Both the position numbers and the translations under genes were made by a program. Shown in pieces: positions 14,895-37,279 of a DNA stretch of 64,000 bases (positions within the stretch are counted from its first letter, which is position 1; each line of letters opens with the position of its first letter). The stretch is taken from contig CAZXUJ010000001.1 in assembly GCA_964643995.1 (NCBI GenBank), positions 5,622-69,621 of the forward strand, read 5' to 3'. The DNA is from an uncultured Candidatus Saccharibacteria bacterium. GTDB taxonomy: Bacteria; Patescibacteriota; WWE3; UBA101185; UBA10185. Under the pieces are notes generated by a model that did no database searches, was not told the DNA's origin, and was given only the letters and a program-made list of their open reading frames with translations.

Positions 14895-14915
14895 AAATAT
14901 ATCAGTTACATATTA

Positions 14916-18085: not shown

Positions 18086-18581
18086 GTTTTTGTCCTCCGT
18101 ATTGACTGTTGATAAGGATTAGTATTAGCTTCTCCGCCAAGAAGCTAAAGTAACCGCGCTGAATACAAATTATGTATTGTACTCAAAACGGTTACTTCAA
18201 CATAGCGGAACAGCTTAGCTAACAGTAGGTTTTCAATGTTCAGAAACCTTGTTTGCAACAAAATTTCTGACCCCATTTTATACTATAGGTTGTCTGTAGC
18301 TTGAAGTATCTTGAGCCAACCTGACATATTCTGACTAGCGTTTTTTGCTTTAGTTATAAATGAAATTTAAGGTTTATGGAGCACCAGTCGAGTCTGGAAA
18401 CCCACAAGCAAATTATACTCTCCAGGCTAGAAATGAGACAAATAAGACACTATAAAAAAGGGAATGGTTCTATAATTCTCTAGGTTATGCAATTTTGCCG
18501 AGAATCGTTTGGTTAATAGTTTTGTATATAGTATTTAAGCCTCGTCAGTACGTTGTAGCCAGTGATATAATCGCAATTGAA

Positions 18582-20449: not shown

Positions 20450-22231
20450 TTACTTTCTATTTTCCTCATTTTTCTTTACACTCAACATTAAACTTTTCTT
20501 TTCATCTGACCAGTACAGTTTTATATCCTTCTCTTTTTTAGGCGGATACTTTTCTAAAAAATCTTTGTTCTCGGCTACCATAAAAACCTTACAATATATG
20601 GAACCTTTAATATCTTTCAGCTGCCTTGCTTTTAAAAACCCTTGTCTAACAAGTTTATCCCTAGTAGATGGATGTACACTATAGTCCGACTGTATCTGCC
20701 AATCTGATATCCACTGGCCTTCATTACTATAAACATGTTTTAGATCATGCGGTATAACGCCTTCCTTAATATTTCTCCAACAATCAGCACATCTAATACC
20801 GTCAAGATTCCACCACATTTTGTCGCCTGCGAAGGATCTTCCGCATATTCCACAGGTATAGCTTCCACCATCAGATACCTCAAGGAAGAAACCCTCGGGC
20901 TCTTTTTCCAATCTTCGCTTACGAATATTTTCTATGGCATCAAACTTTCCCATATGCCTTGCCAGTTGCACAATATTGTTTAGTTCCAAATGTGATCTTT
21001 TATTAGGGTCGCTAATTGGGTTTGGTTCTTCCTTAATTTTCCCAGTTATCGTTATTAAATCTTCCTCACGCTCGTAGCCTTTAAGTTTTCCGGATATAAA
21101 TCCAAGCCTATTTGATAAACCCTCTGGCATTAACCGCCAATTAGTTTTTTCAAGTGTATCTTTAATGAGTTTTTGAAGATCATACATGCTTACACGCTTA
21201 TTCCTCTGAGTTTCAGTTTCCTGAAATGAAAACGGAACAATTACAAACTGACCCATCTCAGGTTTATCGAGTGAAAATTTAACATAGCCTTGTTTTTCAA
21301 AAAGGGGAGTTAGGAGCTTTTCAAGTTCTCCGATTCCAAGCTTTTTAATTTTGGAAACCTGCTCATAAACTGGATTATCGTATTTACGCATCTCATCGTC
21401 ATGCGCAAACTTGGAATATTCCAATGCTTCTAATATTTCGAGGTTTTCTTGACCCTGTTTATCATCAAGGCAGTATTCCGCACGGTATTTTTCCAAAAGC
21501 GCTTTGTTTTCAGCTTCTTCTTTCGCCCGTTCTTCATCTTTTTTACTAAAATCATCTACGTCAATATCTTTATAACCGCAGGAAGCACATTTGGTAGTCC
21601 ATGTAATGACTTTATCCTTAACTTTAGTTGTGACTTTTACTTCTTTACCGCATTTAGGGCAAAGATTTGGTTTTGGAACATAAACTTCTCCGTTATCATA
21701 AATAGCTTGGCGTTTCTTACAGGCAGAACAGTCAAACATGAAACAAACCCGCATCGGGGTATCCGTATAATCCTCAAGGACTTTAGAACTGTAGCTCATT
21801 TGAGTGTTGCATTTTGGGCATATAACATTTTTTGGTTCTGTCGCGTTATCGTAATAATCCTGCTTGGCTTTATCCTCAGCCATTATTTTCTCAATAAAAT
21901 CCTTTTTTCTTTTATATTCGTTTGTTTTAACTACAAATAAATGCCTGCCTAAAATAAGGCCAAAATCATGTTCTTTTTTCTCATCTGTTAAGGATTTAAG
22001 TTCGGGATCGTTAAAGTGTTCTTTGTATGCTTTTCGCCAAAATTCTATTGTGCGTAGACATTCGCGTATGGTTGAGAGGTCGTATATATCTATGTAGTAT
22101 TGCTCGGGTTTTAGATATTCCACTAAAAACAATATACTACTTTCTAATGTGAGTAGAATATTCACGATTTTCTTATAAAAAACTCGTGTTATTCTGGTAA
22201 TATAAGTTAAGATGACAAAATCAGAAGACAT
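20450..22231 (-). CDS. Large multi-zinc-ribbon protein, unknown function (start uncertain)
   Basis: At least three C-x2-C...C-x2-C pairs (CPKCNTQM...CSACKK; CPKCGKE...CASCGY; CGICGRS...CADCWRN). Convergent with OLD gene, divergent from MTase. First ATG would overlap the MTase start by 20 bp, so the true start may be an internal Met (e.g. ~21883) or a non-ATG start. Confidence 0.45.
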   Translation of the reverse strand: MSSDFVILTYITRITRVFYKKIVNILLTLESSILFLVEYLKPEQYYIDIYDLSTIRECLRTIEFWRKAYKEHFNDPELKSLTDEKKEHDFGLILGRHLFVVKTNEYKRKKDFIEKIMAEDKAKQDYYDNATEPKNVICPKCNTQMSYSSKVLEDYTDTPMRVCFMFDCSACKKRQAIYDNGEVYVPKPNLCPKCGKEVKVTTKVKDKVITWTTKCASCGYKDIDVDDFSKKDEERAKEEAENKALLEKYRAEYCLDDKQGQENLEILEALEYSKFAHDDEMRKYDNPVYEQVSKIKKLGIGELEKLLTPLFEKQGYVKFSLDKPEMGQFVIVPFSFQETETQRNKRVSMYDLQKLIKDTLEKTNWRLMPEGLSNRLGFISGKLKGYEREEDLITITGKIKEEPNPISDPNKRSHLELNNIVQLARHMGKFDAIENIRKRRLEKEPEGFFLEVSDGGSYTCGICGRSFAGDKMWWNLDGIRCADCWRNIKEGVIPHDLKHVYSNEGQWISDWQIQSDYSVHPSTRDKLVRQGFLKARQLKDIKGSIYCKVFMVAENKDFLEKYPPKKEKDIKLYWSDEKKSLMLSVKKNEENRK

Positions 22232-23057
22232 TAAAATTAATCAAATAATTCTTGGGGATTGCATAACAGGTATGGAAAAACTACCTGATAGGTCAGTTGA
22301 CTTAGTGATTGCTGATCCCCCTTACAATGTATCAAAAGGTAACAAATGGAAGTGGGATAACAGCGTTAAATTACAGGGATTTGGTGGAAATTGGAATAAA
22401 ACCATGGAAGATTGGGACAACATGTCACTTCAAGATTATTGGAGTTTCACTGAAGCTTGGTTAAATCAGGTTTGTAGAGTGTTGAAACCCTCGGGGTCTC
22501 TTTGGGTATATGGAACTTATCACAATATTGGAATAATTAATGTAATTATGCAGAAGCTGGGGGTCGAAATGTTAAATGAAATAATATGGTTTAAACGAAA
22601 TTCATTTCCTAATTTATCGGGCAGACGATTTACTGCCAGTCATGAAAATTTGATTTGGGCCCACGTCGGTGGAAAAAAGCGACAGTACTATTTTGATTAC
22701 AAGAAAATAAAGGAAATGCAATTTCCTGAAGACAAGATAAAAACTCCAGGAAAACAGATGAGAACTGTATGGGACATACCAAATAACAAGGAGGCTTCGG
22801 AATTGAAATTTGGAAAACATCCTACCCAGAAGCCGTTGCGTTTATGTAGAAGAATTTTATTAGCAACAAGCAGGCCATCAGACTTGATATTGGTCCCATT
22901 CTGCGGTTCTGGAAGTGAATGTGTTGCCGCAAAAATGCTTGATAGGAACTTTATAAGCTTCGAAGTAGATCAGAAATATGTTGATATCGCTAATAAGCGT
23001 ATTGAGAATACTGATGTTAAAGCAAATTTATTTAATCTTTCTTTGGATACTCTATGA
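22212..23057 (+). CDS. DNA amino-methyltransferase, beta-class (N4-cytosine or N6-adenine)
   Basis: Motif IV LVIADPPYNV precedes motif I ILVPFCGSGSECVAAK (beta-class order). Confidence 0.8.
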   Translation: MTKSEDIKINQIILGDCITGMEKLPDRSVDLVIADPPYNVSKGNKWKWDNSVKLQGFGGNWNKTMEDWDNMSLQDYWSFTEAWLNQVCRVLKPSGSLWVYGTYHNIGIINVIMQKLGVEMLNEIIWFKRNSFPNLSGRRFTASHENLIWAHVGGKKRQYYFDYKKIKEMQFPEDKIKTPGKQMRTVWDIPNNKEASELKFGKHPTQKPLRLCRRILLATSRPSDLILVPFCGSGSECVAAKMLDRNFISFEVDQKYVDIANKRIENTDVKANLFNLSLDTL

Positions 23058-23911
23058 ATGAAGTCGGTAAAAAATTAATTCCACCTGTTATTAAGTGGAG
23101 CGGTAGCAAGAGACCTGTTGCTTATCAGTTATCACAGTATTTTCCAGAGACTAAAAGGTTCTTTGATCCATTCGTTGGAGGTGGTTCTATATTACCGTTT
23201 TTCTTTGGTAAAAAGGCTTTTGTTGGTGACGTAATTCCAGAGTTAATATTTCTTTGGGAATCGATTAAAACGGATCCAGACAAAGTTATTAATGAATATA
23301 GAACTAGATGGGAATCACTTAAGAATAATGGATACACTGAGTATTACTCCATTCGGGACACATTTAACGTAACAAGAAATCCTATGGATTTCTTGTTTTT
23401 AAGTAGAACCTGCGTGAACGGTTTGATTAGGTATAACAAAATAGGGGAATTTAATAATTCATTACATCATACACGCTCAGGTATAGATCCCGAACGTTTT
23501 GCCCCTATAATTAAAATGTGGAGCAAATGGATTCAACAAGTGTCGTTTCTCAATCAGGATTATCGATTAACATTAAAGGAAGTTACTAAAGGAGACACGG
23601 TATTTTTAGATCCCCCATATGTGGGTACAAAATCCAGATACATACCTCAAAAATTCGACTATGCAATTTTCTTTGATGAACTTGAGAGGCTAAACAGCAC
23701 TGGTGTTAACTGGATTCTCACCTTAGACGGTAATGCAGGGGATAGATATTATGATAGCAAGATTCCAAAAGAATTATATAAGGCCAGTATTAAGGTAAAT
23801 ACAGGAAAGTCACCGTTTTCAAAAGTAATGAATAATAAACAAGACAGTATTAGCGAATCAGTGTACTTCAACTTTCAACCAATTGCCAAAATGCCTAACG
23901 CGGTTTTGTAA
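23054..23911 (+). CDS. Dam-family (D12 class, alpha) N6-adenine DNA methyltransferase
   Basis: N-term IKWSGSKRP...FDPFVGGGS (motif I) then LDPPYVGTKSRY (motif IV); start overlaps previous MTase stop (ATGA). Confidence 0.8.
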   Translation: MNEVGKKLIPPVIKWSGSKRPVAYQLSQYFPETKRFFDPFVGGGSILPFFFGKKAFVGDVIPELIFLWESIKTDPDKVINEYRTRWESLKNNGYTEYYSIRDTFNVTRNPMDFLFLSRTCVNGLIRYNKIGEFNNSLHHTRSGIDPERFAPIIKMWSKWIQQVSFLNQDYRLTLKEVTKGDTVFLDPPYVGTKSRYIPQKFDYAIFFDELERLNSTGVNWILTLDGNAGDRYYDSKIPKELYKASIKVNTGKSPFSKVMNNKQDSISESVYFNFQPIAKMPNAVL

Positions 23912-25855
23912 AAATGATTCCAACCATTTAGCAGATTCCTTAGTTTTTATATGCAGATGTACCTGTCCATTTTCTATAAACTCCACGCCAACTATTACAT
24001 CAGAGTTACTTTTTGAGTTTGCAATATTCATATCCTCGTATTTTGTATATCTAAAAGCAGCTACCGAGAAAATCTTTTGCTCCTTTTCCTTGTACTCTTT
24101 ATCGAATACTCTCCATGAGACTTCATCTTTTTCTCTATATACATTAGGCCCAGTTCTGGTTAATTCCTTAACATATTTGATAAGTCGGGATCCAATATCC
24201 GTTTCTAACGATACGCTCGTATCTTTAGATTCGATGCTTAAAATATATACTTGGTTATTTGAGTGTTTTATTTGAAAAATATGGTCAGGTCTTTTAGAGA
24301 GTGTACCAGATACACGTGGTAAGGATACCCATCTATACTCGGTACCATCTTCAAAATTAAAGATTGATATACCACTCCAATTACCTCCTGGAGGGTTACA
24401 AAGACCTTCGAAGAAAGTCTCATCTTTATGTAAGTAAAATATTTCATGTAATACCGAATCTACATCGTGTTCGCCAAACTTTTTTGGCATAAAGGTATTA
24501 ATTGGTTTGTCTAATCCTGCTTGTAAGTGTTTCTCATATTTAGTTGGTATAACATACATTACTTTGTCAGATCGTTCTGTTGTTTTAGTGTCCACAATTA
24601 TTGCGTTGCTATAATTTAATACCGCTTGCCAGAGTCCATTTGTTTGAGCCAATTTCCAAATGTTACCAGTAACTTCTTTTAATGTTGTAGTAGGACAAGG
24701 ACCGTAAATTATTGTTAAAACATCGACATCATTTTCTCCTGTTACCATGCGCAAAAGTGGTACTAGTCCTCTGTCCGGTCGTGAGTCATCCCCTCTAGGC
24801 TTGAATCCAGCAACCCACGCTATGAACAATGGTTTCTCTCCATTTTTTATCCAATTTATAGATTCTGCGTCTACCTTTGATCTGTATATTGTTGCTACAA
24901 GCTGACCAAGTTTATGTCGTTCAGTAGTACTTAGCAAGCAAAACGGAAGATCTCCCGAACACACAGCTACAGCCTTGTTATTTGAAACACTTGAAAGCAA
25001 CTTCTTAAATGAATTAGATGTTGGAATTGAAACGCGCTTATTCCATGGTATTCTCTTATCAATAAGTAAATCGGCTATTTGAGATCCTTTGTCAAAGTTC
25101 AACAATTTTTTCCATTCGTTGTCTTGTAATATGCCACCTTTGTTTTTCCTTTGGCTGGCAAGAAACAAAGTGAGTTCCAACGCTTTATTAGCTAAACTTT
25201 CTGCATAGCTGCTGTAATTGTCATTTTCTAGGATAGCTTTGATAAATAGCTGTAGTTCTTTACCAGCAAAGAAACGAGAATATTTTTTGTATAAGTCTGC
25301 AGAAATGGATGGGCTGGGAGAATAAATTGGAAGTGTAATAGTGCTATATCTTTTACCAAGGGATAGGTATGAAAACGGAATGATTGGGTTTGGAAATCTA
25401 GCGGCCTTAGTATTTCTATCTGAATCTAACTCTATACCGCCTAATTCTGCAAAATATAAATACGGTATTTTAGCCTGAGCACTACTAATAGCCCTGCCAC
25501 TTCTTTGCCATGCATTATTACCTGCGGGTAAGGCACCACAAAATTCCATTGATAGGATTGGCTTTTCGATTTGTAACCCATTTTTTTCATATTGCTTCGT
25601 AACTATTGCATCTGTAGCCTCTCTAAGTTTTGCCCCGTTTACTTCTAAAACTGTTTTAATGTCATAATCCCATCTATCGTACCCTGGAAATAGCTGTATC
25701 TCATATCTTATTTCAGAGTTGGAAAGTGAAAATTTTGGAACATAAAGTGGACCATCGATAGGTACAAGTTCAAGCTCCAATGATGAGGAAATAAGCCTTA
25801 GTGCTTCTTCACATTCAAGAATATTATCACCGTAGATATTTAGTTTTGTTACCAT
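23858..25855 (-). CDS. Putative restriction endonuclease (candidate Type IIS-like partner of the two MTases)
   Basis: 665-aa ORF convergent with and overlapping the 3' end of the Dam-like MTase gene. C-terminal PD-x17-ExK-like arrangement: RPDHIFQIKHSNNQVYILSIESKD. No other family signal. Confidence 0.4.
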   Translation of the reverse strand: MVTKLNIYGDNILECEEALRLISSSLELELVPIDGPLYVPKFSLSNSEIRYEIQLFPGYDRWDYDIKTVLEVNGAKLREATDAIVTKQYEKNGLQIEKPILSMEFCGALPAGNNAWQRSGRAISSAQAKIPYLYFAELGGIELDSDRNTKAARFPNPIIPFSYLSLGKRYSTITLPIYSPSPSISADLYKKYSRFFAGKELQLFIKAILENDNYSSYAESLANKALELTLFLASQRKNKGGILQDNEWKKLLNFDKGSQIADLLIDKRIPWNKRVSIPTSNSFKKLLSSVSNNKAVAVCSGDLPFCLLSTTERHKLGQLVATIYRSKVDAESINWIKNGEKPLFIAWVAGFKPRGDDSRPDRGLVPLLRMVTGENDVDVLTIIYGPCPTTTLKEVTGNIWKLAQTNGLWQAVLNYSNAIIVDTKTTERSDKVMYVIPTKYEKHLQAGLDKPINTFMPKKFGEHDVDSVLHEIFYLHKDETFFEGLCNPPGGNWSGISIFNFEDGTEYRWVSLPRVSGTLSKRPDHIFQIKHSNNQVYILSIESKDTSVSLETDIGSRLIKYVKELTRTGPNVYREKDEVSWRVFDKEYKEKEQKIFSVAAFRYTKYEDMNIANSKSNSDVIVGVEFIENGQVHLHIKTKESAKWLESFLQNRVRHFGNWLKVEVH

Positions 25856-26141
25856 ACAAGTCTATCCAATTTAATTGATATCCCAAAAATTTATCAAGAA
25901 ATATTAATTTCACTTTATAGGATATTGCAATATGGCCTTTTTATCAAGGAACTTAGGAAATTTTAAGCGGGATACTAATCTTGCACACTTTTTCGCTAAA
26001 ATAGAATTAATAAGCTTAAAAACTTATTTAAGAAATCTGAACAAAGGCACTTGTCACTTTAGACTTTAGCCATTGAACACGCCAAATGACCAAAAAGCAT
26101 ATGTAAAGTATGTAGTTATTTTTGTGCCTAAAAGGAGGCTT

Positions 26142-27470
26142 ATGGAAGAAAAATTAAATATAGTTTACGTACAAGTTAATAAATTAAACCCTGCCCCATA
26201 TAACCCCAGAAAGTGGGATGAGGACGCGTGTACAAAGTTAAAAGAAAGCCTAACAAAATTTGGCTTTGTTGACCCGCTGATAGTTAACTCGGCTCCAAAT
26301 AGAGAAAACGTGGTCATCGGAGGACACTTCAGGCTCAAAATGGGTATAGAGCTTGGTTTCAAAGAAGTTCCCGTTGTCTACGTTAATATTCCTGAGCTTG
26401 AAAAAGAAAAGGAATTAAACCTAAGACTTAACAAAAACGTTGGTACTTGGGATTTTAAACTATTGGCAGAGTTTGATGCATCGTTACTTGGTGATATTGG
26501 CTTTTCGAGCGAGGAGTTGGACGATATATTTGGAATCGACGATACACCTGAAGAATTCGACCTTCAAAAAGAACTTCAGAAGCTAAATATTCAAAATATT
26601 AATATCAAAAAAGGCGATGTGTATAAGCTTGGTGATAGTAGGCTAATGTGTGGCGACTCTACCGTCGACACAGATGTTCTAAAGCTATTTGGTGATGAAA
26701 AAGCCGATATGTGCTTTACCGACCCACCCTATATTCTTGATTACTTAAAAGGTAAGAAAAAAGCTGGTAATGCAATTACTGGCTTTGGTGCGAAACGTGA
26801 TCGTAGGTACCTTGAAACCGATGTTTTGCCCGATGATTTTACTGAAAAATGGATGGCAAATATTGCAAAGATCCAAAAGGAAAGCTTTTCAATTATTGTT
26901 TATGAAAATTGGAAAAACATACGAACCATTTGGGGCGAAATGGAAAAGTATTGGAAAGTTAAAAATATGATTGTGTGGCATTTACCAAATCGTACCCAAG
27001 GGTTTGCAGGCAAGTATAGATTCTTTTCCAAGCACGATATTGCAATGGTCGGAGCTTCTCCGAATGCCAATATCGATTATAACTTAGAACCCGAAGAAGA
27101 CGGTCTTCAAAACGAATATGAAACAGCACTTTATGCGATTTCAGGTAAACCTCAATGGGAAAGCTATAAGCATGGTAAAAAGTACCAGCCAACGGACTTT
27201 ATTGAGTATGTTGCCTCGGATGAAAAAAGCTCAGGCCAAGGCATCATATTTGGCACGAAACCACTTGAAATACTAATTCCATACATCAAAGTACTTACAA
27301 AACGCGGAGATCTAATTGTTGAACCTTTCGGTGGAAGTGGTTCAACTCTAATTGCGGCTACAAAAATGAACCGCAGATGTTACTTAATGGAAAAGTCGCC
27401 TGTTTATGCTGAAGTTATTAAAAACCGTTGGGAAAAACTTACGGGTCTTAAAGGGGAGCGATTATTATGA
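26142..27470 (+). CDS. ParB-like nuclease domain fused to beta-class DNA amino-methyltransferase (phage-type)
   Basis: N-term ParB/Srx fold (LNPAPYNPRKW...VIGGHFRL); MTase motif IV FTDPPYILDY then motif I VEPFGGSGSTLIAA. Start set to ATG at 26142, which has AGGAGG 6 nt upstream; ORF extends to 26073. Confidence 0.75.
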   Translation: MEEKLNIVYVQVNKLNPAPYNPRKWDEDACTKLKESLTKFGFVDPLIVNSAPNRENVVIGGHFRLKMGIELGFKEVPVVYVNIPELEKEKELNLRLNKNVGTWDFKLLAEFDASLLGDIGFSSEELDDIFGIDDTPEEFDLQKELQKLNIQNINIKKGDVYKLGDSRLMCGDSTVDTDVLKLFGDEKADMCFTDPPYILDYLKGKKKAGNAITGFGAKRDRRYLETDVLPDDFTEKWMANIAKIQKESFSIIVYENWKNIRTIWGEMEKYWKVKNMIVWHLPNRTQGFAGKYRFFSKHDIAMVGASPNANIDYNLEPEEDGLQNEYETALYAISGKPQWESYKHGKKYQPTDFIEYVASDEKSSGQGIIFGTKPLEILIPYIKVLTKRGDLIVEPFGGSGSTLIAATKMNRRCYLMEKSPVYAEVIKNRWEKLTGLKGERLL

Positions 27471-27886
27471 GTAAAGCAATTGAAGATAGGCAGAAAAAAG
27501 AACGCGCGCTACTTCTTGAAACGTTTAAGAAGACTCCAATTATTCAACTGGCTTGCGAAAAGTCTGGTGTTGGCAGAGCAACATACTATCGATGGCGACA
27601 TGAAGATTCCGAATTTGCACTTCAAGCAGATTTGGCTTTAGAGGAAAGCGTGGGGCTTATGAATGACCTTGCCGAATCTCAGCTTTTATCTGCGATAAAA
27701 GAAAAAAACATTACAGCTATTATATTTTGGCTTAAGAATAGACATAAGGCTTATACAAACAGGGTTGAAATAAATGCAAAAGTAGAATCAAAAAATGCGG
27801 AACTTAGCCCAGAACAAGAAGATCTAATAAAAAAAGCGCTTGGCTTATCAAGCATTGTTGCAAGCGGAGGTACGAAGGATGATTAA
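27467..27886 (+). CDS. Phage terminase small subunit-like HTH protein
   Basis: 139 aa, HTH IQLACEKSGVGRATYYRWRHEDSEF, immediately upstream of and overlapping terL; ATGA overlap with previous gene. Confidence 0.5.
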   Translation: MSKAIEDRQKKERALLLETFKKTPIIQLACEKSGVGRATYYRWRHEDSEFALQADLALEESVGLMNDLAESQLLSAIKEKNITAIIFWLKNRHKAYTNRVEINAKVESKNAELSPEQEDLIKKALGLSSIVASGGTKDD

Positions 27887-29396
27887 CTCCAGTTTATGCA
27901 CGGATGATATTGATAAGATAGTAAAAGACCCTAAGGTCAGAAAAGAACTAACCCGCAAAAGTCATTATTTGTTTTTCCATATTTACTTTGCTAGGTACGT
28001 CAAATATCCAACAGCTGATTTTCAAAAAGAAATATTTGAGCTGACTGAAAAGCCAGACGCGATGCTGTATGAAATCATTGCTTTTAGGGGTTCTGCTAAG
28101 TCTACAATAATGTCGTTATCACTCCCGATTTGGTCACTTATTAATGAGTCACAGAAGAAATATATTTTGCTTTTGAGCCAAACTCAGCAACAGGCTAGGC
28201 AAGCGTTAATCAATATAAAACGAGAGCTTGAAAGTAATGCATTACTTATTAATGACTTTGGACCATTTGATGAGGATAGTGATGAGTGGCGCACTAATTC
28301 ATTAGTTATTCCTAAATTTGATGCTCGAATTTCCGCGGCTTCTACTGGTGAAAGTATTCGAGGTGTAAAGCACGGTGAGTATCGACCTGATTTAATAATC
28401 GCGGACGATGTGGAGGATTTATCATCAGTTAAAACAAAAGAAGGTCGGGATAAAACGTACGATTGGTTTACTGGTGAAATCGTTCCCGCAGGTGATGTAA
28501 ATACTCGAATATTTTTAATTGGTAACCTTCTACATGATGGCTCTTTAATGGTTCAAATTAAAGAACAAATTCTTAGTAAAAAATTACGGGGTATATTCCG
28601 CGAGTACCCATTGGTAAGTGAAGACAAACAAATATTGTGGGCTGGCAAGTTCCCAAACAATGAGGCCATTGAGGCGTTAAAAGCTACAGTACCTAGTGAA
28701 TCAGCCTGGTCACGGGAATATTTGCTTAAAATAATCTACGACGACGATCGAGTCATAAAACCTGAGTGGATTCATAGATACTCCGATTTACCTCAAATAT
28801 CATGGGAAGGTTACCAATATACTGCCGTTGGTGTTGATATTGCAGTTTCTGAAAAAGAGCATGCGGATTATAGTGCAATTGTTGCAGGTATGGTTTTTAA
28901 AAAGAACGGTAATACATCCATTTATATATTGCCCTATCCAGTTAATAAGCATTTAACTTTTCCCGAACTGGAAGAAGCAATCCGTGATTTAGCTAGGTCA
29001 TTACCTACAAAAAGAAAAGTTAAATTATTCATTGAGGACGTTGGGGCTCAAAAAGCATTGGTTCAAAGGCTACAAATGTATGGGTACGATGTAGAAGGCA
29101 TAGTACCTAGGGCTGATAAACGAACTAGACTTGGTTACACGGCACAACCGTTAAAATACAAGACCGTGCAGTTGTGTAAATATGGCTGTGATGAATTAGT
29201 AGACCAGCTAAGCAATTTTGATTATGTAAGGCATGATGATCTTGCTGATGCCTTTTCACTGCTTGTAAATAAGGTTTTAGACGACGCTACAATAAAAAAG
29301 ATACAACCAAATATCCGTGTTCTATCTTCCACTAATAGTTTTAGAACGGTAGGTGGTGGAAGTGCCAACGACGTTGCAAGTTTCTTAAGAAGCTGA
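27879..29396 (+). CDS. Phage terminase large subunit (ATPase + RNase H-like nuclease)
   Basis: Walker A FRGSAKST, Walker B DLIIADDVED, C-terminal nuclease motif GVDIAVSEKEHADYSAIV. Start set at ATG 27879, preceded by GGAGGT. Confidence 0.75.
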   Translation: MINSSLCTDDIDKIVKDPKVRKELTRKSHYLFFHIYFARYVKYPTADFQKEIFELTEKPDAMLYEIIAFRGSAKSTIMSLSLPIWSLINESQKKYILLLSQTQQQARQALINIKRELESNALLINDFGPFDEDSDEWRTNSLVIPKFDARISAASTGESIRGVKHGEYRPDLIIADDVEDLSSVKTKEGRDKTYDWFTGEIVPAGDVNTRIFLIGNLLHDGSLMVQIKEQILSKKLRGIFREYPLVSEDKQILWAGKFPNNEAIEALKATVPSESAWSREYLLKIIYDDDRVIKPEWIHRYSDLPQISWEGYQYTAVGVDIAVSEKEHADYSAIVAGMVFKKNGNTSIYILPYPVNKHLTFPELEEAIRDLARSLPTKRKVKLFIEDVGAQKALVQRLQMYGYDVEGIVPRADKRTRLGYTAQPLKYKTVQLCKYGCDELVDQLSNFDYVRHDDLADAFSLLVNKVLDDATIKKIQPNIRVLSSTNSFRTVGGGSANDVASFLRS

Positions 29397-29560: not shown

Positions 29561-29657
29561 GTCTTAACATAGCTTAAGATCAAATAAAAGACTTGCCTTT
29601 GATTAGTTTTTGCGTCATCCATTGGCGCTAGTAAAAACTTATTTCAAAGGAGGTCTT

Positions 29658-30557
29658 ATGGATCAAGCTAAACAGGTTGAAACTGCTACGCCACAGTATA
29701 AAAACCTAGTTAAAAACTTATGGCGTAAAAGCTGGCTTCTAAAGCTTGTACTTATTGCACTTTATCCGCTATCTCTTACTTATTTAATTTGGAAATCTCA
29801 TAGACTGCCGAAAGTTGTAAAAGGCATACTTCTTTTAGTAATGTGGTTTTTTGTTATTGTATTTACTGCTGCTTTTTCAAGTCCAACAAGTCAGCAAGCA
29901 TATCAAGAAGGTCAAAAAGCAGGGCAAGAAGCCATTCAGAAGAAAGAAACTACTGAAAAGACAGCCACAACACAAGTTGCTGAGAACAACCAGCTAGTTC
30001 AAATACCTACTGAGCAACCTCAACCGACCGCAGCAGCAACACCGACTCCTACACCCACACCCACGCCAACAGCGCAGGTAGCCGAAAAGCCCGCGGAGCA
30101 AAAACCATATAACATTTACGACGATTTATGGAAAGCTCTGGATACTAGCTTAAAGACTCGAAAAAACATTGATATTAAATATGACGCGACTACAAAGATG
30201 GCAACGCTTTTGGTAAACGAAAACGAAACTTATTGGGATGAAACCGCTATGTTAAACAGTGCATATGCAAGACTCGTTAAATATGGCAAATCTGCCTTTG
30301 AAATAAACGGAGTAGATCAGGTAGGTGTAAACATAAGCACGAAAATGATGGATTCACATGGTAAAGAAAGCGTAGAGGAAGTAATCAGAGTAGCAATTAC
30401 CAAAACAAGCTACAAAGACTATAACTGGGATAACATGCAATACGTCGACGATTTCTACAACAAGATGGTGGATGCGGTAAGCGTTAATTACATAAATCCT
30501 GGGATTTTTAGAAAGCTGAATCTAGATAAGGTTCACCTTAACTTACTTTTGAATTGA
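29658..30557 (+). CDS. Membrane-anchored protein with Pro/Thr/Ala-rich linker (PTPTPTPTPT), unknown
   Basis: Start at ATG 29658, preceded by AGGAGG; two TM helices; low-complexity linker; C-terminal globular domain. Confidence 0.5.
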   Translation: MDQAKQVETATPQYKNLVKNLWRKSWLLKLVLIALYPLSLTYLIWKSHRLPKVVKGILLLVMWFFVIVFTAAFSSPTSQQAYQEGQKAGQEAIQKKETTEKTATTQVAENNQLVQIPTEQPQPTAAATPTPTPTPTPTAQVAEKPAEQKPYNIYDDLWKALDTSLKTRKNIDIKYDATTKMATLLVNENETYWDETAMLNSAYARLVKYGKSAFEINGVDQVGVNISTKMMDSHGKESVEEVIRVAITKTSYKDYNWDNMQYVDDFYNKMVDAVSVNYINPGIFRKLNLDKVHLNLLLN

Positions 30558-30607
30558 GAGAACTGGTGCGTAAGTATATACTTACGCACTATCTTAAGAT
30601 ATTTTAA

Positions 30608-30931
30608 TCAGCAACAAATCTTAAGTAGATTAATGTATCTTGTTAAACCGTCGGATTTCTTTCCGTAAGTTCGGAATAACTGCATCACGTTTTTTAGTAT
30701 TTCCTGTAAGTATTTCTTTTCCTCATTAGTAATATCGGAATTATTGAAAAGTTTAGTTCTTAGCGATATTAATTGCTCATTGCTATCTTGTTTCATACTC
30801 AAGATATGGTCTAGGTATGTCGCTACGTCAGTATTCGTAACAGTATCTTTTAAAAATAACATATCTATCTGATCTAGTTGTGTGTTCATATGCCTATTAT
30901 AACGTAAGTCAGCTATATGTGTTGTAACCAC
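30608..30931 (-). CDS. Hypothetical small protein (107 aa)
   Basis: ORF only. Confidence 0.3.
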   Translation of the reverse strand: MVTTHIADLRYNRHMNTQLDQIDMLFLKDTVTNTDVATYLDHILSMKQDSNEQLISLRTKLFNNSDITNEEKKYLQEILKNVMQLFRTYGKKSDGLTRYINLLKICC

Positions 30932-30978
30932 GCCACTCTTACTCTAACAAGATTCTTACCTTTTGGTATAATACCTCT

Positions 30979-32322
30979 ATGCGTATTGCGTTAATAACAG
31001 CCAGAATCGATCCTTTTATATCACCAATTGATATGGATGGTGGCTGTGTTATGGTGCGTAACTATATAAAATCCCTATATGATTTTGGACATGATATTCA
31101 TGTTTTTACTAGACTTGTAGAAGAATCTCCCATTAATAGTGAGCAGTTAAACACTAAAGCACGTATGCAAAAACAAGCAGGTGTTGGTAAGGTCAAAGTA
31201 AACTCCCGACTTACTGTTTATCGATTACCCTATACGTCCTTAAACTCAGAGGAGAAAGTATGGGAAAAACAACTTCAGGAGTCTTCATCGTTTCTAAGCA
31301 ATGTGAAGGTTTATCTTGATGCACAAAGTTTCGATGTATACCACTATTTTCATTTGCTATCTATAGCTGGATGGTACTTGCTTGATTCTGAAATTCCATT
31401 TATTGAAAAGACAACTTTTAGTCCTTTATTCTTGAGCATTGGACGGCAATTTGAATACCTGCCCGATGCGAGAATTGATATGGAAAGAAAAATCTTGGAA
31501 AGAGTACCTGCTGTAAGTGGCCAATCAAATGGTGAACTTAAAACTATACGTAAATCATACGGAATAGAAGATGAGAAGTTAGTAAAGGTACCTTTGGGGG
31601 TTGATACGAGTATTTTTTACCCTAAAGAGGAATTCGATTCTGTAACAACTAATAAAAAGGTAATTTTGATAAGTCCAAATTCAATAAAACCTCAAAAAAG
31701 ACAGTTGGAAGTTGTAAACATTGCAGGTGAACTCAGAAATCGTGGACATAATGTTTTAACAATAGTAATGGGCAGAATAAAAGATCCTGACTATTACGCA
31801 CAAATTCAAAAACGTATTGAGGAACTTAATCTAAGTCAGGCTTCTAGGGAGGATATTCCAACAAGATCAGAGTTATTAGCACTAAACTCGGATATATTAT
31901 TTTTACCGGGTAAAAAAGAAAAGGAGCTTTCTGACTTATTACGAACAGCTGATATAGCCGTTTTTCCCTCCACAGATGAAGGTTTTGGTTTGTTAAATCT
32001 AGATTGTATGGCATGTGGTACTTTAACTGTGTGCTCTAATCTAAAAGAATATGGTGACTATCTTATTCCAGGAGAAAATGCCATTGCAGTTGATGTTGAA
32101 AGAGGAATAAATGGTTTCATAGAGGAACTGGATGGTTTACTTAAAAATAAAGAAAAGATCGTGAAAATGTCAAAAATTGCAGTGAACAGTTCTCAGAATT
32201 TCTCGTGGGATAAACTTATAAAAAAACAACTGTTTGTTTATAACACCTTGTTTAATAATGAACCTGTTAATTACACAAAATTTCATACTTCAAATTGGGT
32301 AAATTTGAATGAGCAGGATTAG
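30979..32322 (+). CDS. GT4-family (GT-B fold) glycosyltransferase
   Basis: C-terminal GT4 signature region FPSTDEGFGLLNLDCMACGTLTV (ExFG...E motif). Confidence 0.68.
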   Translation: MRIALITARIDPFISPIDMDGGCVMVRNYIKSLYDFGHDIHVFTRLVEESPINSEQLNTKARMQKQAGVGKVKVNSRLTVYRLPYTSLNSEEKVWEKQLQESSSFLSNVKVYLDAQSFDVYHYFHLLSIAGWYLLDSEIPFIEKTTFSPLFLSIGRQFEYLPDARIDMERKILERVPAVSGQSNGELKTIRKSYGIEDEKLVKVPLGVDTSIFYPKEEFDSVTTNKKVILISPNSIKPQKRQLEVVNIAGELRNRGHNVLTIVMGRIKDPDYYAQIQKRIEELNLSQASREDIPTRSELLALNSDILFLPGKKEKELSDLLRTADIAVFPSTDEGFGLLNLDCMACGTLTVCSNLKEYGDYLIPGENAIAVDVERGINGFIEELDGLLKNKEKIVKMSKIAVNSSQNFSWDKLIKKQLFVYNTLFNNEPVNYTKFHTSNWVNLNEQD

Positions 32323-32327
32323 TTACT

Positions 32328-33194
32328 ATGAGAAAAGTAGTCAAAACAGACGCTGAACTAATTTTTGACACTGACAAGGTGTATAAACGGTTTACCACGT
32401 CCTCTGTAGATACAAACGTATTAAACGATCTAATTAGACTAGATAAACAGGCAAATCCAATTCCACATTTTTTGGGAATTTTACCTTATTTGGATACACC
32501 TTTTTGTAGTGAGGCTCTACCCGATGATACTCAAATATTAGTAATGGCTTATTTGCCTGAGCAGTACTTTCTAACAAAAATTACTGAAAGGGGTGAGTTG
32601 ACAGATACGATCTTGCAAAAAATGGCGCACGCCCTCTATAGCTTTCACTCAAAAATGACCATTGTTTCAGAATCTTTTGGAGGAAATTATCTTCTAAATA
32701 GATTTACAAAAGATAGGGAGTTAGTTGCAGACAAAGTAATATTGAATGCTGATGTAGCTTCATATCACAAAGGATTTACGAAAACACTTGATAGTAGCGT
32801 AGAAATTATCCAAAAAAGGTATCAAAATAACCGCTTAGTCGAAGGACATGGGGACTTGAATTTGGATCATATACATCTACAAAAAGACACTCTTACGTTT
32901 ATAGACTTTTCACACAATACAAAATATAGATTTGATGACGTTTCCCGAGATATCGCGGGCATTTATCTACATTTTATAGAACTTGGAAAAAAAGATTTTG
33001 CAACTGCTTTTCTGAGTGAGTATCGTAAGCTTAGTAACGACGCCGATCTTAATTTAATGGTAAATCTTCAAGTTGCTAAAAAGGTGTTAGTTAAGTATTT
33101 CATATACATAGGTGGATTTGATCCCAAACACTACGATGAAAAGATGCTTCAATCTGTTATTAACACTATAATCGACTTAGGAAACGTATACTAA
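32328..33194 (+). CDS. APH/choline-kinase-fold small-molecule kinase (candidate sugar or antibiotic kinase), paralog A
   Basis: Catalytic loop HGDLNLDHIHL and metal-binding FIDFSHN (HGDxxxxN...D motifs of the APH/ePK-like fold). Confidence 0.55.
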   Translation: MRKVVKTDAELIFDTDKVYKRFTTSSVDTNVLNDLIRLDKQANPIPHFLGILPYLDTPFCSEALPDDTQILVMAYLPEQYFLTKITERGELTDTILQKMAHALYSFHSKMTIVSESFGGNYLLNRFTKDRELVADKVILNADVASYHKGFTKTLDSSVEIIQKRYQNNRLVEGHGDLNLDHIHLQKDTLTFIDFSHNTKYRFDDVSRDIAGIYLHFIELGKKDFATAFLSEYRKLSNDADLNLMVNLQVAKKVLVKYFIYIGGFDPKHYDEKMLQSVINTIIDLGNVY

Positions 33195-33197
33195 ACT

Positions 33198-34253
33198 ATG
33201 CATATTTTAGAAATATCATCTTTACAGGAATTAACACCCCCAGAGGGTTATGGAGGTACAGAAAGATTTGTTCACTGGCTTTCAGAAGCTTTTGTAGAAA
33301 ATGGTAACCAGGTTAGTGTAATCTGCAAACAGGGATCCAAAGGTGGTACCTACCAAACAGTTTTCACAGAACAAGAGCAACTGACAGAAACTGTTAGGAA
33401 CTTTATTAAAAACAATGAGGTACAAATTATTCATGTAAATACTAAAGATAAATTCTTACTAAATTATTTAAAAACAACAAAGATTAAAGTAGTTATAACC
33501 CTTCACAATAATTTTAGGCGAACAAGTAGTTGGGTGGATTTAATAAAAGAAAACAATCCAAATTTTTACGTCACAACTATTAGTGAAAACTTAAAAAAGC
33601 GAGTTTTAGAAGCCCTTGAATTTAATTCTGTAACAATACCCACAAATGGAATTACTAATCTTGGCTTTGGTATGCCTATTACGAAAATAGTTAATAACGA
33701 AGATCCACAGTATTATTTATACCTAGGAGTGATGGCTAGATATAAAGGAGTTTTGGATATAGTAAAAGCTTTTTCTAATACAACCAAACAATTACTATTA
33801 GTTGGACCCTGTAACGACCCAAAGGAGAATGAGTATTTCAAGGAAATATTAGAATATACAAAACGTTATACAAATATTAAGTATTACGATGCTACAAAAG
33901 ATAATTCCGAAAAAGTGAATCTTATTAAAAGGGCAAAAGCTTTGATAGTGGCTACTGGATACGATCCTCTAGAAAGTGATTGCCACGAAGCTTTTGGACT
34001 TGTAATGCTTGAGGCAAATAATTTGGGTGTGCCCGTTATTGGTTTCGCAAAAGGGAATATAGAGGATTACATAGTAAACGGTGTTAACGGATATAAGTTT
34101 CAAGATATCAACCAGTTGCCTGAATTAGCCGATAAAGTTGAACAGAGTGACCTTAGTGAAAAGTGCATTGCTACTGCTGAAAAATATGATATCAATAAAA
34201 TCGCTACACAATATCTAAATTTCTTTACAAATATTCTTCAACAAAAGTATTAA
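33198..34253 (+). CDS. GT4-family glycosyltransferase
   Basis: EAFGLVMLEANNLGVPVIG (GT4 E-x7-E region). Confidence 0.68.
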   Translation: MHILEISSLQELTPPEGYGGTERFVHWLSEAFVENGNQVSVICKQGSKGGTYQTVFTEQEQLTETVRNFIKNNEVQIIHVNTKDKFLLNYLKTTKIKVVITLHNNFRRTSSWVDLIKENNPNFYVTTISENLKKRVLEALEFNSVTIPTNGITNLGFGMPITKIVNNEDPQYYLYLGVMARYKGVLDIVKAFSNTTKQLLLVGPCNDPKENEYFKEILEYTKRYTNIKYYDATKDNSEKVNLIKRAKALIVATGYDPLESDCHEAFGLVMLEANNLGVPVIGFAKGNIEDYIVNGVNGYKFQDINQLPELADKVEQSDLSEKCIATAEKYDINKIATQYLNFFTNILQQKY

Positions 34254-35079
34254 GCATACTCACGCTATTAGTTAATTTATCCTTATCGTAATGTACAACA
34301 TTGTACCCACCAGAATAGACAAAATATTTCATTAATACTCGTTTAGCTACTTGTAGTATTATAAGTTTTCTAATTAATTCATCAGACGTATATGCGAATA
34401 GTAATAAGTTGGAAAGCTTTTTAGAACCGCGCTGATACAAATCGAGGAAAAGAGTAGCGATATCCCTAGTCGGATCATCAGTTCGATATTTTTTTCTTAA
34501 GTAAAAGTCTATTAAACAAAAATTATCCCCTTCTTTAAAAAGATGTTCTAAGTTTACATCACCATGTATTTGTTTTATGTAACCCTTATTTGCTCTCTCA
34601 AGTATAAAGTCTCGAAGACTATTAAGTTCTTTGTCTATCTTTTCTAATATAGAGACTATGTTCTCATGCATATGAGGTAAGGTTCTAATACGAACGATAT
34701 CCTCCTTCATACGACTGTATAAATAGTCATTAGGTTGCTTATTATCAGTTGGGCATTTTGAATGAAAATTGTTTAGATACATACCTAATGGTTTTATTAT
34801 CTGTTCTAAATCATTTGTCTGTATAAGACAATCATCCTCATTTAATTTTCTCATAACCATAACGGGAGTGTTTGTGATATTAGGCCAAAAACCCTCAAAT
34901 TCTTTTGAAGTTTGCATTCTTAAAATAATAGGCTTTATGTTTGCTAAAGAGTCTAATAGGGGAATGTCAGTAAGGTCATCTTTCGTTACTTTGCCGTCTA
35001 AAATAAGCTTATAAACCTTATCTTTAGTAAAGACAATATCGACATCATCTTTGGTAATTCTTTTTAAAATTTCCTGCAT
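34225..35079 (-). CDS. APH-fold kinase, paralog B (inverted orientation relative to paralog A)
   Basis: IHGDVNLEHLF and LIDFY motifs; N- and C-termini alignable with 32328-33194 (DKVYK..., VAKRVLMKYFVYSGG vs VAKKVLVKYFIYIGG). Confidence 0.55.
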   Translation of the reverse strand: MQEILKRITKDDVDIVFTKDKVYKLILDGKVTKDDLTDIPLLDSLANIKPIILRMQTSKEFEGFWPNITNTPVMVMRKLNEDDCLIQTNDLEQIIKPLGMYLNNFHSKCPTDNKQPNDYLYSRMKEDIVRIRTLPHMHENIVSILEKIDKELNSLRDFILERANKGYIKQIHGDVNLEHLFKEGDNFCLIDFYLRKKYRTDDPTRDIATLFLDLYQRGSKKLSNLLLFAYTSDELIRKLIILQVAKRVLMKYFVYSGGYNVVHYDKDKLTNSVSMLNTFVEEYL

Positions 35080-36479: not shown

Positions 36480-36480
36480 A

Positions 36481-37259: not shown

Positions 37260-37279
37260 GTCATCAATGTGTTGATGAC
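37260..37279. promoter_or_regulatory. Perfect 8-4-8 palindrome GTCATCAA-TGTG-TTGATGAC overlapping the serine recombinase start codon
   Basis: Seen directly; position suggests an operator or recombinase-binding site. Confidence 0.4.

Follow-up and report, generated by a model that had tools for sequence, protein, structure and literature searches.

Islands of the PICI/SaPI type are discrete integrated elements of 10-25 kb that carry an integrase of their own, repressor-type regulators and accessory defence genes, and that have no capsid, tail or lysis genes. Their integrase is a tyrosine integrase, they possess a primase/replicase-ori module and genes for capsid-size redirection, and they encode only the small terminase subunit (TerS), the large subunit (TerL) being supplied by the helper. 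Among the satellite classes described so far, only cf-PICIs are known to us to supply a large terminase of their own alongside TerS; in addition, they have genes for portal, major capsid protein, protease and head-tail connectors, and we know of no satellite class that has TerL without portal and capsid genes of its own. In serine-integrase siphoviruses (SPbeta, phiC31, TP901-1 and A118 types), a DNA methyltransferase (MTase) with a ParB domain, TerS and TerL follow one another in the normal phage order, and a morphogenesis and lysis block comes after TerL. PICMIs and VEIMEs have very small gene sets without capsid remodelling, and the available text of the respective papers describes TerS and defence cargo in some of them and serine recombinases in some VEIMEs (PMC10803314, PMC9618062). 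Integration of PICMIs takes place beside fis with a tyrosine integrase and AlpA, whereas for VEIMEs the available part of the paper mentions TerS homologues and no large terminase. Finally, the tycheposons of Prochlorococcus are seeded at tRNA 3' ends, with direct repeats of partial tRNAs, cargo that can be exchanged and accretion beside the tRNA; they use tyrosine recombinases and helicase/primase modules, and the PICI-like ones among them have terS and a major capsid protein instead of TerL with an MTase (bioRxiv 10.1101/2020.12.28.424599).

The island described here is distinct from PICI, cf-PICI, PICMI, VEIME and tycheposons, in spite of being like each of them in part. It lies in the window, by which we mean the whole 64-kb stretch of DNA that was analysed, where it extends over ca. 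24.7 kb (about 15046-39733) and is inserted at the 3' end of a tRNA-Gly(CCC) gene (Table 1). With PICIs and SaPIs it has in common the discrete integrated form, an integrase, a TerS that would redirect packaging and the accessory defence genes, with cf-PICIs the possession of both terminase subunits, and with tycheposons the tRNA 3' end and the exchangeable cargo. The gene order around the terminase and a TerL belonging to phrog_38 are those of serine-integrase siphoviruses, but the block of morphogenesis and lysis genes is replaced by a variable slot, and these elements measure just 14-25 kb. In contrast to PICIs and SaPIs, the hosts are CPR bacteria, a large serine recombinase (LSR) takes the place of the tyrosine integrase, neither the primase/replicase-ori and capsid-size redirection genes of PICIs nor the head genes of cf-PICIs were found, and TerL and TerS are strictly linked to an MTase, in an operon that neither PICMIs nor VEIMEs are known to have. 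Of the features of a restriction-modification (RM) system, in which an MTase is paired with a cognate nuclease that spares methylated DNA, the one observed is the tight linkage of MTase and TerL; PADLOC has no model for such a pair.

Table 1. Features of the island and its borders (positions in the window)
Feature	Position	Strand	Evidence or remark
tRNA-Gly(GCC)	14916..14990	-	ARAGORN, Rfam; candidate left limit
424-aa protein, C-terminal winged-helix (Trans_reg_C), left arm	15754..17028	+	Pfam 5.8e-8
OLD-family ATPase-TOPRIM nuclease, left arm	18495..20402	+	AAA_15 1.3e-26, OLD-like_TOPRIM; PADLOC Old 1.8e-26
593-aa two-domain fusion, left arm	20450..22231	-	phmmer, clustering
Type II RM system, left arm	22212..25855		three genes
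N4/N6 MTase of RM system	22212..23057	+	Pfam, 1.1e-52 and 7.4e-33 for the two MTases
Dam-like MTase of RM system	23054..23911	+	Pfam, as above
REase of RM system, 665 aa	23858..25855	-	PADLOC REase_II 1.4e-130
Core gene 1, ParB_N-N6/N4 DNA methyltransferase	26142..27470	+	442 aa; Pfam, PHROG
Core gene 2, small terminase subunit TerS	27467..27886	+	139 aa; PF13022, PHROG TerS families
Core gene 3, large terminase subunit TerL	27879..29396	+	505 aa; ATPase and nuclease domains intact
Variable slot between TerL and LSR	29610..37176		Pfam
Core gene 4, large serine recombinase (LSR)	37269..38579	+	Resolvase, Recombinase, Zn_ribbon_recom; motif YARKST
DUF3644 protein, candidate defence system PDC-S19, right arm	38572..39513	-	Pfam 6.8e-53; PADLOC 5.1e-124
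Terminal non-coding stretch	39565..39732	+	two copies of GGAACGGTCGGAACTT(T/C)..ACAT at 39565-39587 and 39710-39732 (repeat search)
tRNA-Gly(CCC)	39734..39808	-	3' end is the right boundary, attR side

The first-pass annotation had recognised a ParB-nuclease/MTase fusion, TerS and TerL at this place, and Pfam, PHROG and fold comparisons confirm the three genes, all on the forward strand. The MTase matches ParB_N (4.7e-9), N6_N4_Mtase (2.9e-21) and phrog_498 (1.7e-79) and contains the motifs FTDPPY and FGGSGS. Its true start is the ATG at 26142, in front of which lies the ribosome-binding site AAAGGAGG; a TTG at 26073, considered as the start, was dropped in favour of this ATG. TerS scores 35.1 bits against PF13022 (gathering score 27.9), matches six PHROG TerS families (1.7e-7 to 2.7e-3) and is encoded directly 5' of TerL, and so qualifies as a small terminase subunit of the HTH type. 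For TerL, whose start is most likely the ATG at 27879, a fold search was required because a sequence-only PDB search with its profile rendered marginal matches alone (1e-4); Pfam Terminase_6C reached 19.6 bits, under the cut-off of 22.6. The AlphaFold model (pLDDT 83.7) was matched by Foldseek to full-length large terminases, PhiV-1 first (4.5e-19) and then D6E, Sf6, T7 and HK97, and its ATPase also resembles the ATPase domains of T4 gp17 and P74-26. Moreover, phrog_38 covers residues 24-491 (1.3e-72), and the Walker A (GSAKST) and Walker B (DLIICDDVED) motifs as well as the nuclease aspartates D320 and D453/D454 are invariant in an alignment of 30 homologous sequences. Therefore TerL, whose integrity had been singled out for checking, is not truncated. 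MTase and TerS share the tetranucleotide ATGA and TerS and TerL share 8 nt, overlaps from which the three genes are predicted to form one operon. No frameshifts were found in the window genes, and a promoter and terminator scan around the operon gave matches no commoner than in shuffled sequence.

The LSR, which starts 7.9 kb downstream of TerL, and the two flanking tRNA-Gly genes had been overlooked in the first annotation. It has the catalytic Resolvase, the Recombinase and the zinc-ribbon domains (5.3e-22, 3.2e-14 and 6.4e-8, respectively), and its match in the PDB is SPbeta SprA/YokA (9.5e-14). Homologous LSRs are found downstream of TerL in 93-94 related loci.

A comparison with 136 related loci from CPR genomes and metagenomes places the window island in a large family hitherto seen only in CPR/Patescibacteria, the four-gene set being present across Saccharibacteria, Paceibacterota, Parcubacteria, Kazan and Roizmanbacteria; TerL has 1767 matches at E<=1e-10, and the metagenome loci number at least 447. 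The relatives have MTase, TerS, TerL, 0-9 kb of cargo and LSR in this order, and order and orientation are kept in ca. 90% of the loci that are sufficiently long. The full architecture on one strand was found in 42 of 57 and 51 of 80 loci (two sets), and most loci without LSR break off less than 5 kb past TerL. Only the MTase, TerS, TerL and LSR families are conserved according to clustering. TerL is full-length in every member, TerS occurs in nearly all, and the MTase lies immediately 5' of TerS in 65/66 metagenome loci and in all informative IMG/VR or genome loci. The dN/dS values of the four genes range from 0.01 to 0.12 (0.025 for the window TerL and its closest relative, L159), and the pairwise identities of TerL and LSR correlate with a Mantel r of 0.57, which was reached by none of 2000 permutations. 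Strong purifying selection acts on the four core genes, which are intact and inherited together. In some elements TerL is present as two full-length paralogues in tandem. Since TerL genes with at least 40% identity were never found within a real phage among the 136 loci, this TerL lineage has long evolved apart from phages; in the nearest phage-like context, L062, TerL is 30% identical and no MTase occupies that place. No description of this island family was found in the searchable literature.

The right boundary is defined by L073, which is 93% identical from 42213 to 39734, the homology ending exactly at the 3' end of tRNA-Gly(CCC); beyond the tRNA, L073 has unrelated genes (DUF1428 and others) that are missing from the window. 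The left limit is probably, though not with certainty, tRNA-Gly(GCC), 91% identical to the tRNA at the opposite end. The tRNA and a 42-nt segment upstream of it occur twice, 24.8 kb apart, and both genes are genuine because the changes in their acceptor stems are compensatory. Besides the whole tRNA-Gly(GCC), no partial tRNA copy was found, and homologues of a racemase-like gene of the left flank did not settle this boundary, L158 being too distant and the contigs of L156 and L157 breaking inside tRNA-Gly(GCC). Of the two repeat copies in the terminal non-coding stretch, the second adjoins the tRNA 3' end; they could be a recombinase-binding site or an att remnant. In the relatives, the first tRNA past the LSR lies on the opposite strand with its 3' end toward the island in 30/30 loci, in 8 of them at up to 222 bp from the LSR stop. 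Direct repeats of 15-30 bp flank islands of 14.0-17.3 kb in L009, L112, L132, L149 and L088; in L009, the genes beyond the repeats belong to the host, and between the repeats no recombinase other than the LSR was found. Excision and integration are suggested by these att-like repeats and by the selection acting on the integrase. The LSR clade agrees only partially with the tRNA target: the L010 and L011 enzymes are both found at Glu-CTC, whereas those of L007 (Asn) and L009 (Trp) are 72% identical despite their different tRNA neighbours.

The genes outside the core are exchangeable cargo, mostly devoted to anti-phage defence. In the left arm, OLD homologues are also found in L011 and L043, and the 593-aa protein belongs to a recurrent accessory family that lies 5' of the core, usually on the other strand, and whose two domains are separate neighbouring genes in L006 and L044. 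The 665-aa ORF, a type II restriction enzyme, had gone unrecognised before. The window slot encodes proteins of 315 and 107 aa of unknown function, two GT4 glycosyltransferases, a 288-aa kinase-like protein, a 284-aa protein, a NUDIX-glycosyltransferase fusion and a 231-aa protein. Slot length varies from 0 to 9.2 kb among the relatives, the slot has been exchanged between otherwise near-identical elements (L050 vs L051/L052), and cargo elsewhere includes RM, DGR and CBASS-like genes. In 23 of 75 loci the operon is preceded, at 60-1100 bp, by a divergently oriented repressor with LexA_DNA_bind and S24 domains, and regulators of the XRE type are frequent as well. No repressor could be recognised in the window element. 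The 62-aa ORF that follows TerL (29434-29622) did not cluster with the XRE gene found at the same place in L002 and L004. PHROG gave nothing for the families of 137, 247 and 209 aa encoded just upstream of the MTase, and the 247-aa family had no Pfam match either.

That portal, capsid and tail genes are missing downstream of TerL had been noticed earlier, and the observation can be extended to the whole window and to lysis genes. No portal gene was found in the window or any related locus, no structural genes are retained in the 136 relatives, and head, portal and connector families are absent from the 25 most frequent Pfam/PHROG families of 82 slot proteins. Likewise, the window island showed no primase or Rep family, and neither did the conserved families of the 136 loci, though one might be hidden among the unannotated ORFs. 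Terminal repeats indicative of circular or episomal copies were detected in 0/127 related contigs, and neither a helper phage nor an encapsidated copy was seen.

As one possibility, the first-pass annotation had proposed that defence genes are carried here by a phage satellite or a PICI-like island. The satellite part agrees with the discrete island at a tRNA end, the integrase, the variable defence cargo and the LexA/CI-like repressors of the relatives; the likeness to PICIs ends at the lack of primase/replicase and capsid-morphogenesis genes, the serine integrase and the presence of TerL beside TerS. We tentatively favour an inducible, helper-dependent, satellite-like island with its own terminase. 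The LSR would integrate and excise the island at the tRNA 3' end, and an element-encoded repressor, LexA/CI-like in a third of the relatives, would hold MTase-TerS-TerL off. Upon induction or infection by a helper phage, TerS would recognise the island's own pac site and TerL would cut the DNA and pump it into procapsids made by the helper, the island being then a capsid-less 'hitcher' with a complete terminase. The co-transcribed MTase could shield the transferred DNA from restriction in the recipient, or it could mark the pac site; Dam methylation marks pac for cleavage in P1. With its defence cargo the island would compensate the host for the cost of its maintenance. Possible helpers are the real phages of 35-39 kb that are known from Patescibacteria (PMC13059738, PMC9160773). 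Against the satellite reading, TerL must dock on a foreign portal, the MTase linkage (ca. 99% of loci) is tighter than a simple anti-restriction accessory needs, and the tandem TerL paralogues are not explained.

It can also be the case, although we consider it unlikely, that the terminase has given rise to a capsid-free restriction, addiction or interference module. The MTase would mark self DNA, TerS would recognise DNA and TerL would act as an ATP-driven translocase-nuclease on unmarked or phage DNA, or else TerS and TerL would sabotage phage packaging, the LSR island spreading by natural transformation or other means. The MTase-TerS link is far tighter than in phages, the MTase is absent from that place in L062, neither the ATPase nor the nuclease residues of TerL vary, and its lineage is never accompanied by structural genes. 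Such a module is also consistent with the absence of replication and morphogenesis functions, with the defence genes among which the element lies and which it carries, and with the tandem TerL duplication, which recalls the diversification of defence genes. However, none of the PADLOC models matches TerS, TerL or the LSR, a literature search yielded no terminase-like defence system, and TerS and TerL retain an ordinary phage-like sequence and fold. The divergent repressor fits inducible transfer better, and it fits a modification enzyme poorly, because the latter must be on constitutively. Less probable still is the more specific proposal that MTase-TerS-TerL is a domesticated capsid-free motor, a methylation-gated ATP-driven nuclease (for restriction, addiction or packaging sabotage) that forms the selfish core of an LSR island spreading among naturally competent CPR bacteria.

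A GTA-like or lateral-transduction device appears improbable. In such a device the terminase would work in situ from the integrated island, filling capsids that a resident prophage or other parts of the genome encode with the downstream cargo, the LSR and adjacent host DNA. The presumed pac site, in terS, lies upstream of the cargo slot and of the tRNA-proximal end, so that cargo would enter the first headful, and phages as well as PICIs have been reported to move defence genes by lateral transduction (PMC12829572). Nevertheless, no structural cluster was seen in any of the 10-kb flanks read, genomes of ca. 1 Mb, as in CPR bacteria, leave little space for a dispersed GTA, and the att-like repeats and the selected integrase point to excision and integration instead.

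Very improbable is a complete virus that goes unrecognised because its capsid and tail genes, among the unannotated ORFs, have diverged too far. Many of the cargo ORFs match no family, and the sampling of CPR viruses is poor, but more than 40 loci have no more than 200 bp between the TerL stop and the LSR start, the repeat-delimited islands measure only 14-17 kb, largely taken up by RM, helicase and regulator genes, and beyond the core no family is common to more than about 20 loci. A decayed prophage, as also considered in the first annotation, in which the packaging module would be a chance survivor of the deletion of structural genes, is effectively refuted, in spite of MTase-TerS-TerL being a typical excerpt of a temperate siphovirus and the LSR a typical phage integrase, by the conservation of the four genes across CPR lineages, their low dN/dS, the invariant catalytic residues of an intact TerL, the lack of frameshifts in the window genes and the absence of structural genes from all 136 relatives. 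The island family as such probably arose long ago from a prophage remnant.

CPR/Patescibacteria represent a large share of bacterial diversity, but next to nothing is known of their phages and mobile elements or of how they exchange genes. Across the CPR radiation, islands recognisable by the four-gene core number in the hundreds to thousands, and these islands appear to be a main carrier of defence systems (RM, OLD, DGR, CBASS-like, PDC-S19) in the tiny CPR genomes. If they are satellites, they would be the first proposed for CPR bacteria and would represent a new minimal solution, in which the whole terminase is brought along and everything else is borrowed. Pairs of LSR and tRNA att site could become integration tools for the newly tractable Saccharibacteria. 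Finally, many of these chromosomal islands are listed in IMG/VR as viral contigs, and therefore CPR virome catalogues and TerL-based host predictions are probably inflated.

The three plus-strand packaging genes described in the first-pass annotation, encoding a ParB_N-methyltransferase (MTase) fusion and the small (TerS) and large (TerL) terminase subunits, have been recovered by Pfam and PHROG searches (see the table below). The surrounding window has a G+C content of ca. 37% and carries eight tRNA genes together with cellular genes of the reduced-genome type (ABC-F, phosphomannomutase, HelD, Dus, a MacB/HlyD exporter and PMT glycosyltransferases). The fusion protein bears the motifs FTDPPY and FGGSGS, and its true start is the ATG at 26142, which is preceded by a AAAGGAGG ribosome-binding site and was also obtained in an independent gene call on L001, a Logan contig identical to the window. 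The MTase, TerS and TerL genes overlap at their junctions, as would be expected for a single operon. Because its weak match to Pfam Terminase_6C could have hinted at a fragment, the integrity of TerL, already questioned in the first-pass annotation, was examined further. Across an alignment of 30 homologues, the Walker A and Walker B motifs and the aspartates of the nuclease do not vary, and the AlphaFold model (pLDDT 83.7) matches full-length large terminases, namely those of PhiV-1 (4.5e-19), D6E, Sf6, T7 and HK97; both alignment and model indicate that TerL is full-length and intact. The lack of structural genes noticed downstream of the operon holds for the entire 64-kb window, in which no portal, capsid, tail or lysis families were found.

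Features of the island and of its borders, with coordinates in the window
Feature	Coordinates	Strand	Matches and content
tRNA-Gly(GCC)	14916-14990	-	
Island (left end putative, by analogy)	~15046-39733		24.7 kb
314-aa ORF	17141-18085	-	12-nt repeat at 17895-18007
593-aa two-domain protein	20450-22231		
Two MTases of RM system	22212-23911		
Type II restriction enzyme, 665-aa ORF	directly upstream of ParB_N-MTase		PADLOC 1.4e-130
ParB_N-MTase	start ATG 26142	+	Pfam ParB_N 4.7e-9, N6_N4_Mtase 2.9e-21; phrog_498 1.7e-79
TerS	27467-27886	+	PF13022, 35.1 bits (gathering score 27.9); six PHROG TerS families
TerL, 505 aa	27879-29396	+	phrog_38 1.3e-72, residues 24-491
Cargo of TerL-LSR slot	30979-36479		sugar-modification set
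LSR	37269-38579	+	Resolvase, Recombinase and zinc-ribbon domains; YARKST catalytic motif
DUF3644 gene (candidate defence system PDC-S19)	after LSR		PADLOC 5.1e-124
tRNA-Gly(CCC)	39734-39808	-	

A gene for a large serine recombinase (LSR) related to SPbeta SprA, overlooked in the first-pass annotation, lies 7.9 kb downstream of the packaging genes on the same strand, and two tRNA-Gly genes, likewise overlooked, 91% identical and 24.8 kb apart, bracket the whole region. The restriction enzyme in the 665-aa ORF and the PDC-S19 identity of the DUF3644 gene had been missed as well. The alignment of the window with a 93% identical contig (L073) runs from 42213 down to 39734 and breaks off precisely where tRNA-Gly(CCC) has its 3' end; past this boundary the genes of L073 are unrelated to those of the window. 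In 13 out of 13 and 17 out of 17 related loci, the first tRNA past the LSR is encoded on the other strand and turns its 3' end toward the island; in eight of them the distance to the stop codon of the LSR is no more than 222 bp. Upstream of the core there are direct repeats containing or adjoining the 3' end of the tRNA, and these delimit islands of 14.0 kb (L009; 21 bp, tRNA-Trp), 17.3 kb (L112; 30 bp, tRNA-Arg), 16.3 kb (L132; 15 bp), 16.3 kb (L149; 19 bp, one mismatch) and 14.5 kb (L088; 16 bp, low complexity). The left repeat of L009 has GrpB and an aminotransferase on its outer side, NusG is located beyond the tRNA, and no recombinase other than the LSR was found in the interior. For the window island, the tRNA 3' end is repeated only in the complete tRNA-Gly(GCC), whose compensatory acceptor-stem changes mark it as a genuine tRNA; a search for an empty insertion site rendered none. 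These comparisons show the element to be discrete and tRNA-associated.

Some further observations concern the tRNA genes. A 42-nt segment upstream of each tRNA-Gly is 81% identical between copies, and the two stretches of tRNA plus upstream segment (14916-15045 and 39734-39861) look like a duplicated tRNA-plus-promoter unit, now split by the island. Two independent Logan assemblies, from two runs of the same study (L156, window 12445-14963; L157, 13534-14971), both break inside tRNA-Gly(GCC), at 14963 and 14971 respectively; since the exact repeat common to both tRNA-Gly genes is only 24 nt, population heterogeneity at this junction is possible. In L012 (11650-11801) and L033 (3741-3892), tRNA-Arg(TCT) and tRNA-Phe(GAA), both on the minus strand, are located 27 nt past the TerL stop, occupying what is a cargo slot elsewhere, and may be element-borne or the trace of a nested integration.

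A database search rendered 1767 TerL homologues at E<=1e-10, several of them on CPR contigs of 0.4-1.2 Mb; the best 120 are 46-58% identical, once the TerL of the window itself and a relative at 88% identity are set aside. Three related loci were obtained by exact look-up, six from GTDB (spanning Saccharibacteria, Paceibacterota, Parcubacteria and Kazan), 47 from IMG/VR and 80 from metagenomes, and were annotated by ORF calling and phmmer with the window proteins as queries. They have a common order on one strand: (ParB-)MTase, TerS, TerL, a variable gap and LSR. The MTase is upstream of TerS in every informative genome or IMG/VR locus and in 65 of the 66 informative metagenome loci. Downstream, an LSR was found in 42 of 57 loci and in 51 of the 80 metagenome loci, plus L108, most LSR-less loci having less than 5 kb of sequence available past TerL. 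The distance between TerL and LSR varies from -24 bp to 9.2 kb and does not exceed 200 bp in more than 40 loci, and all-against-all clustering rendered these four families as the only conserved ones. The closest phage-like context is that of L062, where a long run of plus-strand ORFs comes after a TerL of only 30% identity, MTase and LSR being both absent at the locus.

Variants of this arrangement were also observed. In L099 and L138 the terminase operon is flipped, with tRNA-Ser (+), two small genes and LSR (-) followed by MTase-MTase-TerS-TerL (+), whereas the LSR is still placed as usual with respect to the 3' end of the tRNA. At least eight loci, forming a sub-lineage (L022, L027, L029, L030, L031, L057, L122 and L139) carry tandem full-length TerL genes, 55-63% identical to each other and both with a dN/dS of about 0.04, indicative of purifying selection; a TerS ORF was not recognised in some of them. 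To our knowledge, a duplicated large terminase is unusual in any phage or satellite. Three IMG/VR contigs of 25-55 kb hold two complete core modules each (3300014205_009253, L028/L039; 3300032737_000190, L017/L044; 3300033402_000781, L046/L049), and the 1.18-Mb contig behind L006 has two TerL homologues (P0054 and P0086); one genome can therefore hold several islands, sometimes close together.

Pairwise dN/dS values of MTase, TerS, TerL and LSR were 0.01-0.12 in six moderately diverged pairs. The window core is 78% identical in DNA and 86-90% in protein to its closest relative, L159, with a dN/dS for TerL of 0.025 at saturated synonymous sites. Distances of TerL and LSR are correlated across 35 loci (Mantel r = 0.57, reached by none of 2000 permutations), and therefore both genes travel together. 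Such sequence evidence argues that the module is a functional unit and not a remnant.

The TerL-LSR slot was sampled through 82 proteins from about 24 loci, which include type I/III RM components, MTases, a DGR reverse transcriptase with bAvd, XRE regulators, DUF4352 (Sie-like) proteins, PIF1/Dda helicases, AAA_5 proteins and glycosyltransferases; the 25 commonest Pfam or PHROG families of this sample include none for heads, tails, portals or lysis. Slots are exchanged between otherwise near-identical elements (L050 versus L051/L052). The DGR genes (RVT_1 reverse transcriptase plus bAvd; L002 19003-20373, L012 434-1838) are recurrent in slot or arm, one family being present in 8 loci. Left-arm cargo comprises OLD, a SMODS (CBASS-like) protein, a Schlafen/AlbA_2 protein and the family of the 593-aa window protein, a fusion of two domains encoded by separate adjacent genes in L006 (4067-5720) and L044 (2201-4028). 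With about 10 loci, upstream of the core and mostly on the opposite strand, this family outnumbers all others outside the core; it has no Pfam or PADLOC match and may represent a hitherto undescribed defence or toxin system of two components. In the window, the 665-aa restriction enzyme and the two MTases constitute an RM system, and the slot holds two GT4 glycosyltransferases (weak 'GT4-conflict' matches), a NUDIX-glycosyltransferase fusion and a RIO-like kinase-fold protein, a sugar-modification set that could serve defence or exclusion by modifying the cell surface or DNA. The 314-aa ORF, with no family match, contains at least seven copies of a 12-nt repeat (36-nt super-period) that in a plus-strand frame reads as a Gly/Val-rich periodic segment. 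In 23 of 75 loci, a divergent LexA_DNA_bind plus S24 gene precedes the MTase operon by 60-1100 bp, often with a small plus-strand gene in between, which is the layout of CI/Cro-type or SetR-type switches; no such repressor gene was found in the window element.

We tentatively favour, at somewhat short of an even chance, that these are satellites packaged in helper-phage capsids. The LSR would integrate and excise the island at the tRNA, a repressor would silence the operon and be relieved by SOS induction or phage infection, whereupon TerS and TerL would package island DNA into capsids from a helper phage, and the MTase would protect DNA or gate pac cleavage; in P1, pac cleavage is gated by Dam methylation. 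The phage-type regulation and the selection on both terminase activities are consistent with such a role, as are the sizes of the repeat-delimited islands (14-17 kb, or about 0.4 times the 35-39 kb of known Patescibacteria phage genomes; PMC13059738, PMC9160773), and replication-poor minimal satellites have a precedent in PICMI (PMC10803314). However, neither a helper nor a circular form nor encapsidation has been seen, and replication genes are absent. Also, no capsid-less satellite is known to carry TerL. Three features that weigh against packaging as a satellite, namely a TerL lineage never met in real phage, the tandem selected TerL paralogues and the almost obligatory MTase linkage, keep viable a capsid-free alternative, in itself unlikely, in which MTase-TerS-TerL would be a terminase-derived, methylation-gated nuclease or an addiction module. 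A GTA-like or lateral-transduction role appears quite improbable, and a virus too divergent to be detected, highly so. The decayed prophage of the first-pass annotation is hardly credible, given the intact TerL, the low dN/dS of the four core genes and the co-inheritance of TerL and LSR.

In its presumed working, the element has its closest counterparts in PICI/PICMI-type satellites, and as to genome placement, tRNA-seeded and with exchangeable cargo, in tycheposons. Of the PICI-like island initially proposed, the island nature and the defence cargo stand, whereas the lack of a replication module and the presence of TerL set it apart from PICIs. It differs from cf-PICIs in having no capsid or portal genes, and from both PICMIs and tycheposons in its serine, instead of tyrosine, recombinase. 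For VEIMEs, the passages of the description considered here mention only TerS homologues (PMC9618062), versus TerS plus TerL in the island. Searches of a mainly open-access full-text literature rendered no description of MTase-TerS-TerL-LSR islands or of terminase-bearing CPR islands, and the family is apparently undescribed. The window island is one member of an abundant, conserved family of CPR tRNA-associated serine-recombinase islands, which retain a complete terminase and methylase, have no virion genes and ferry defence systems. Because IMG/VR lists these chromosomal islands (L015-L061) as viral contigs, including fragments of 4-9 kb with only MTase-TerS-TerL-LSR, CPR virus counts and TerL-based host assignments are likely inflated.
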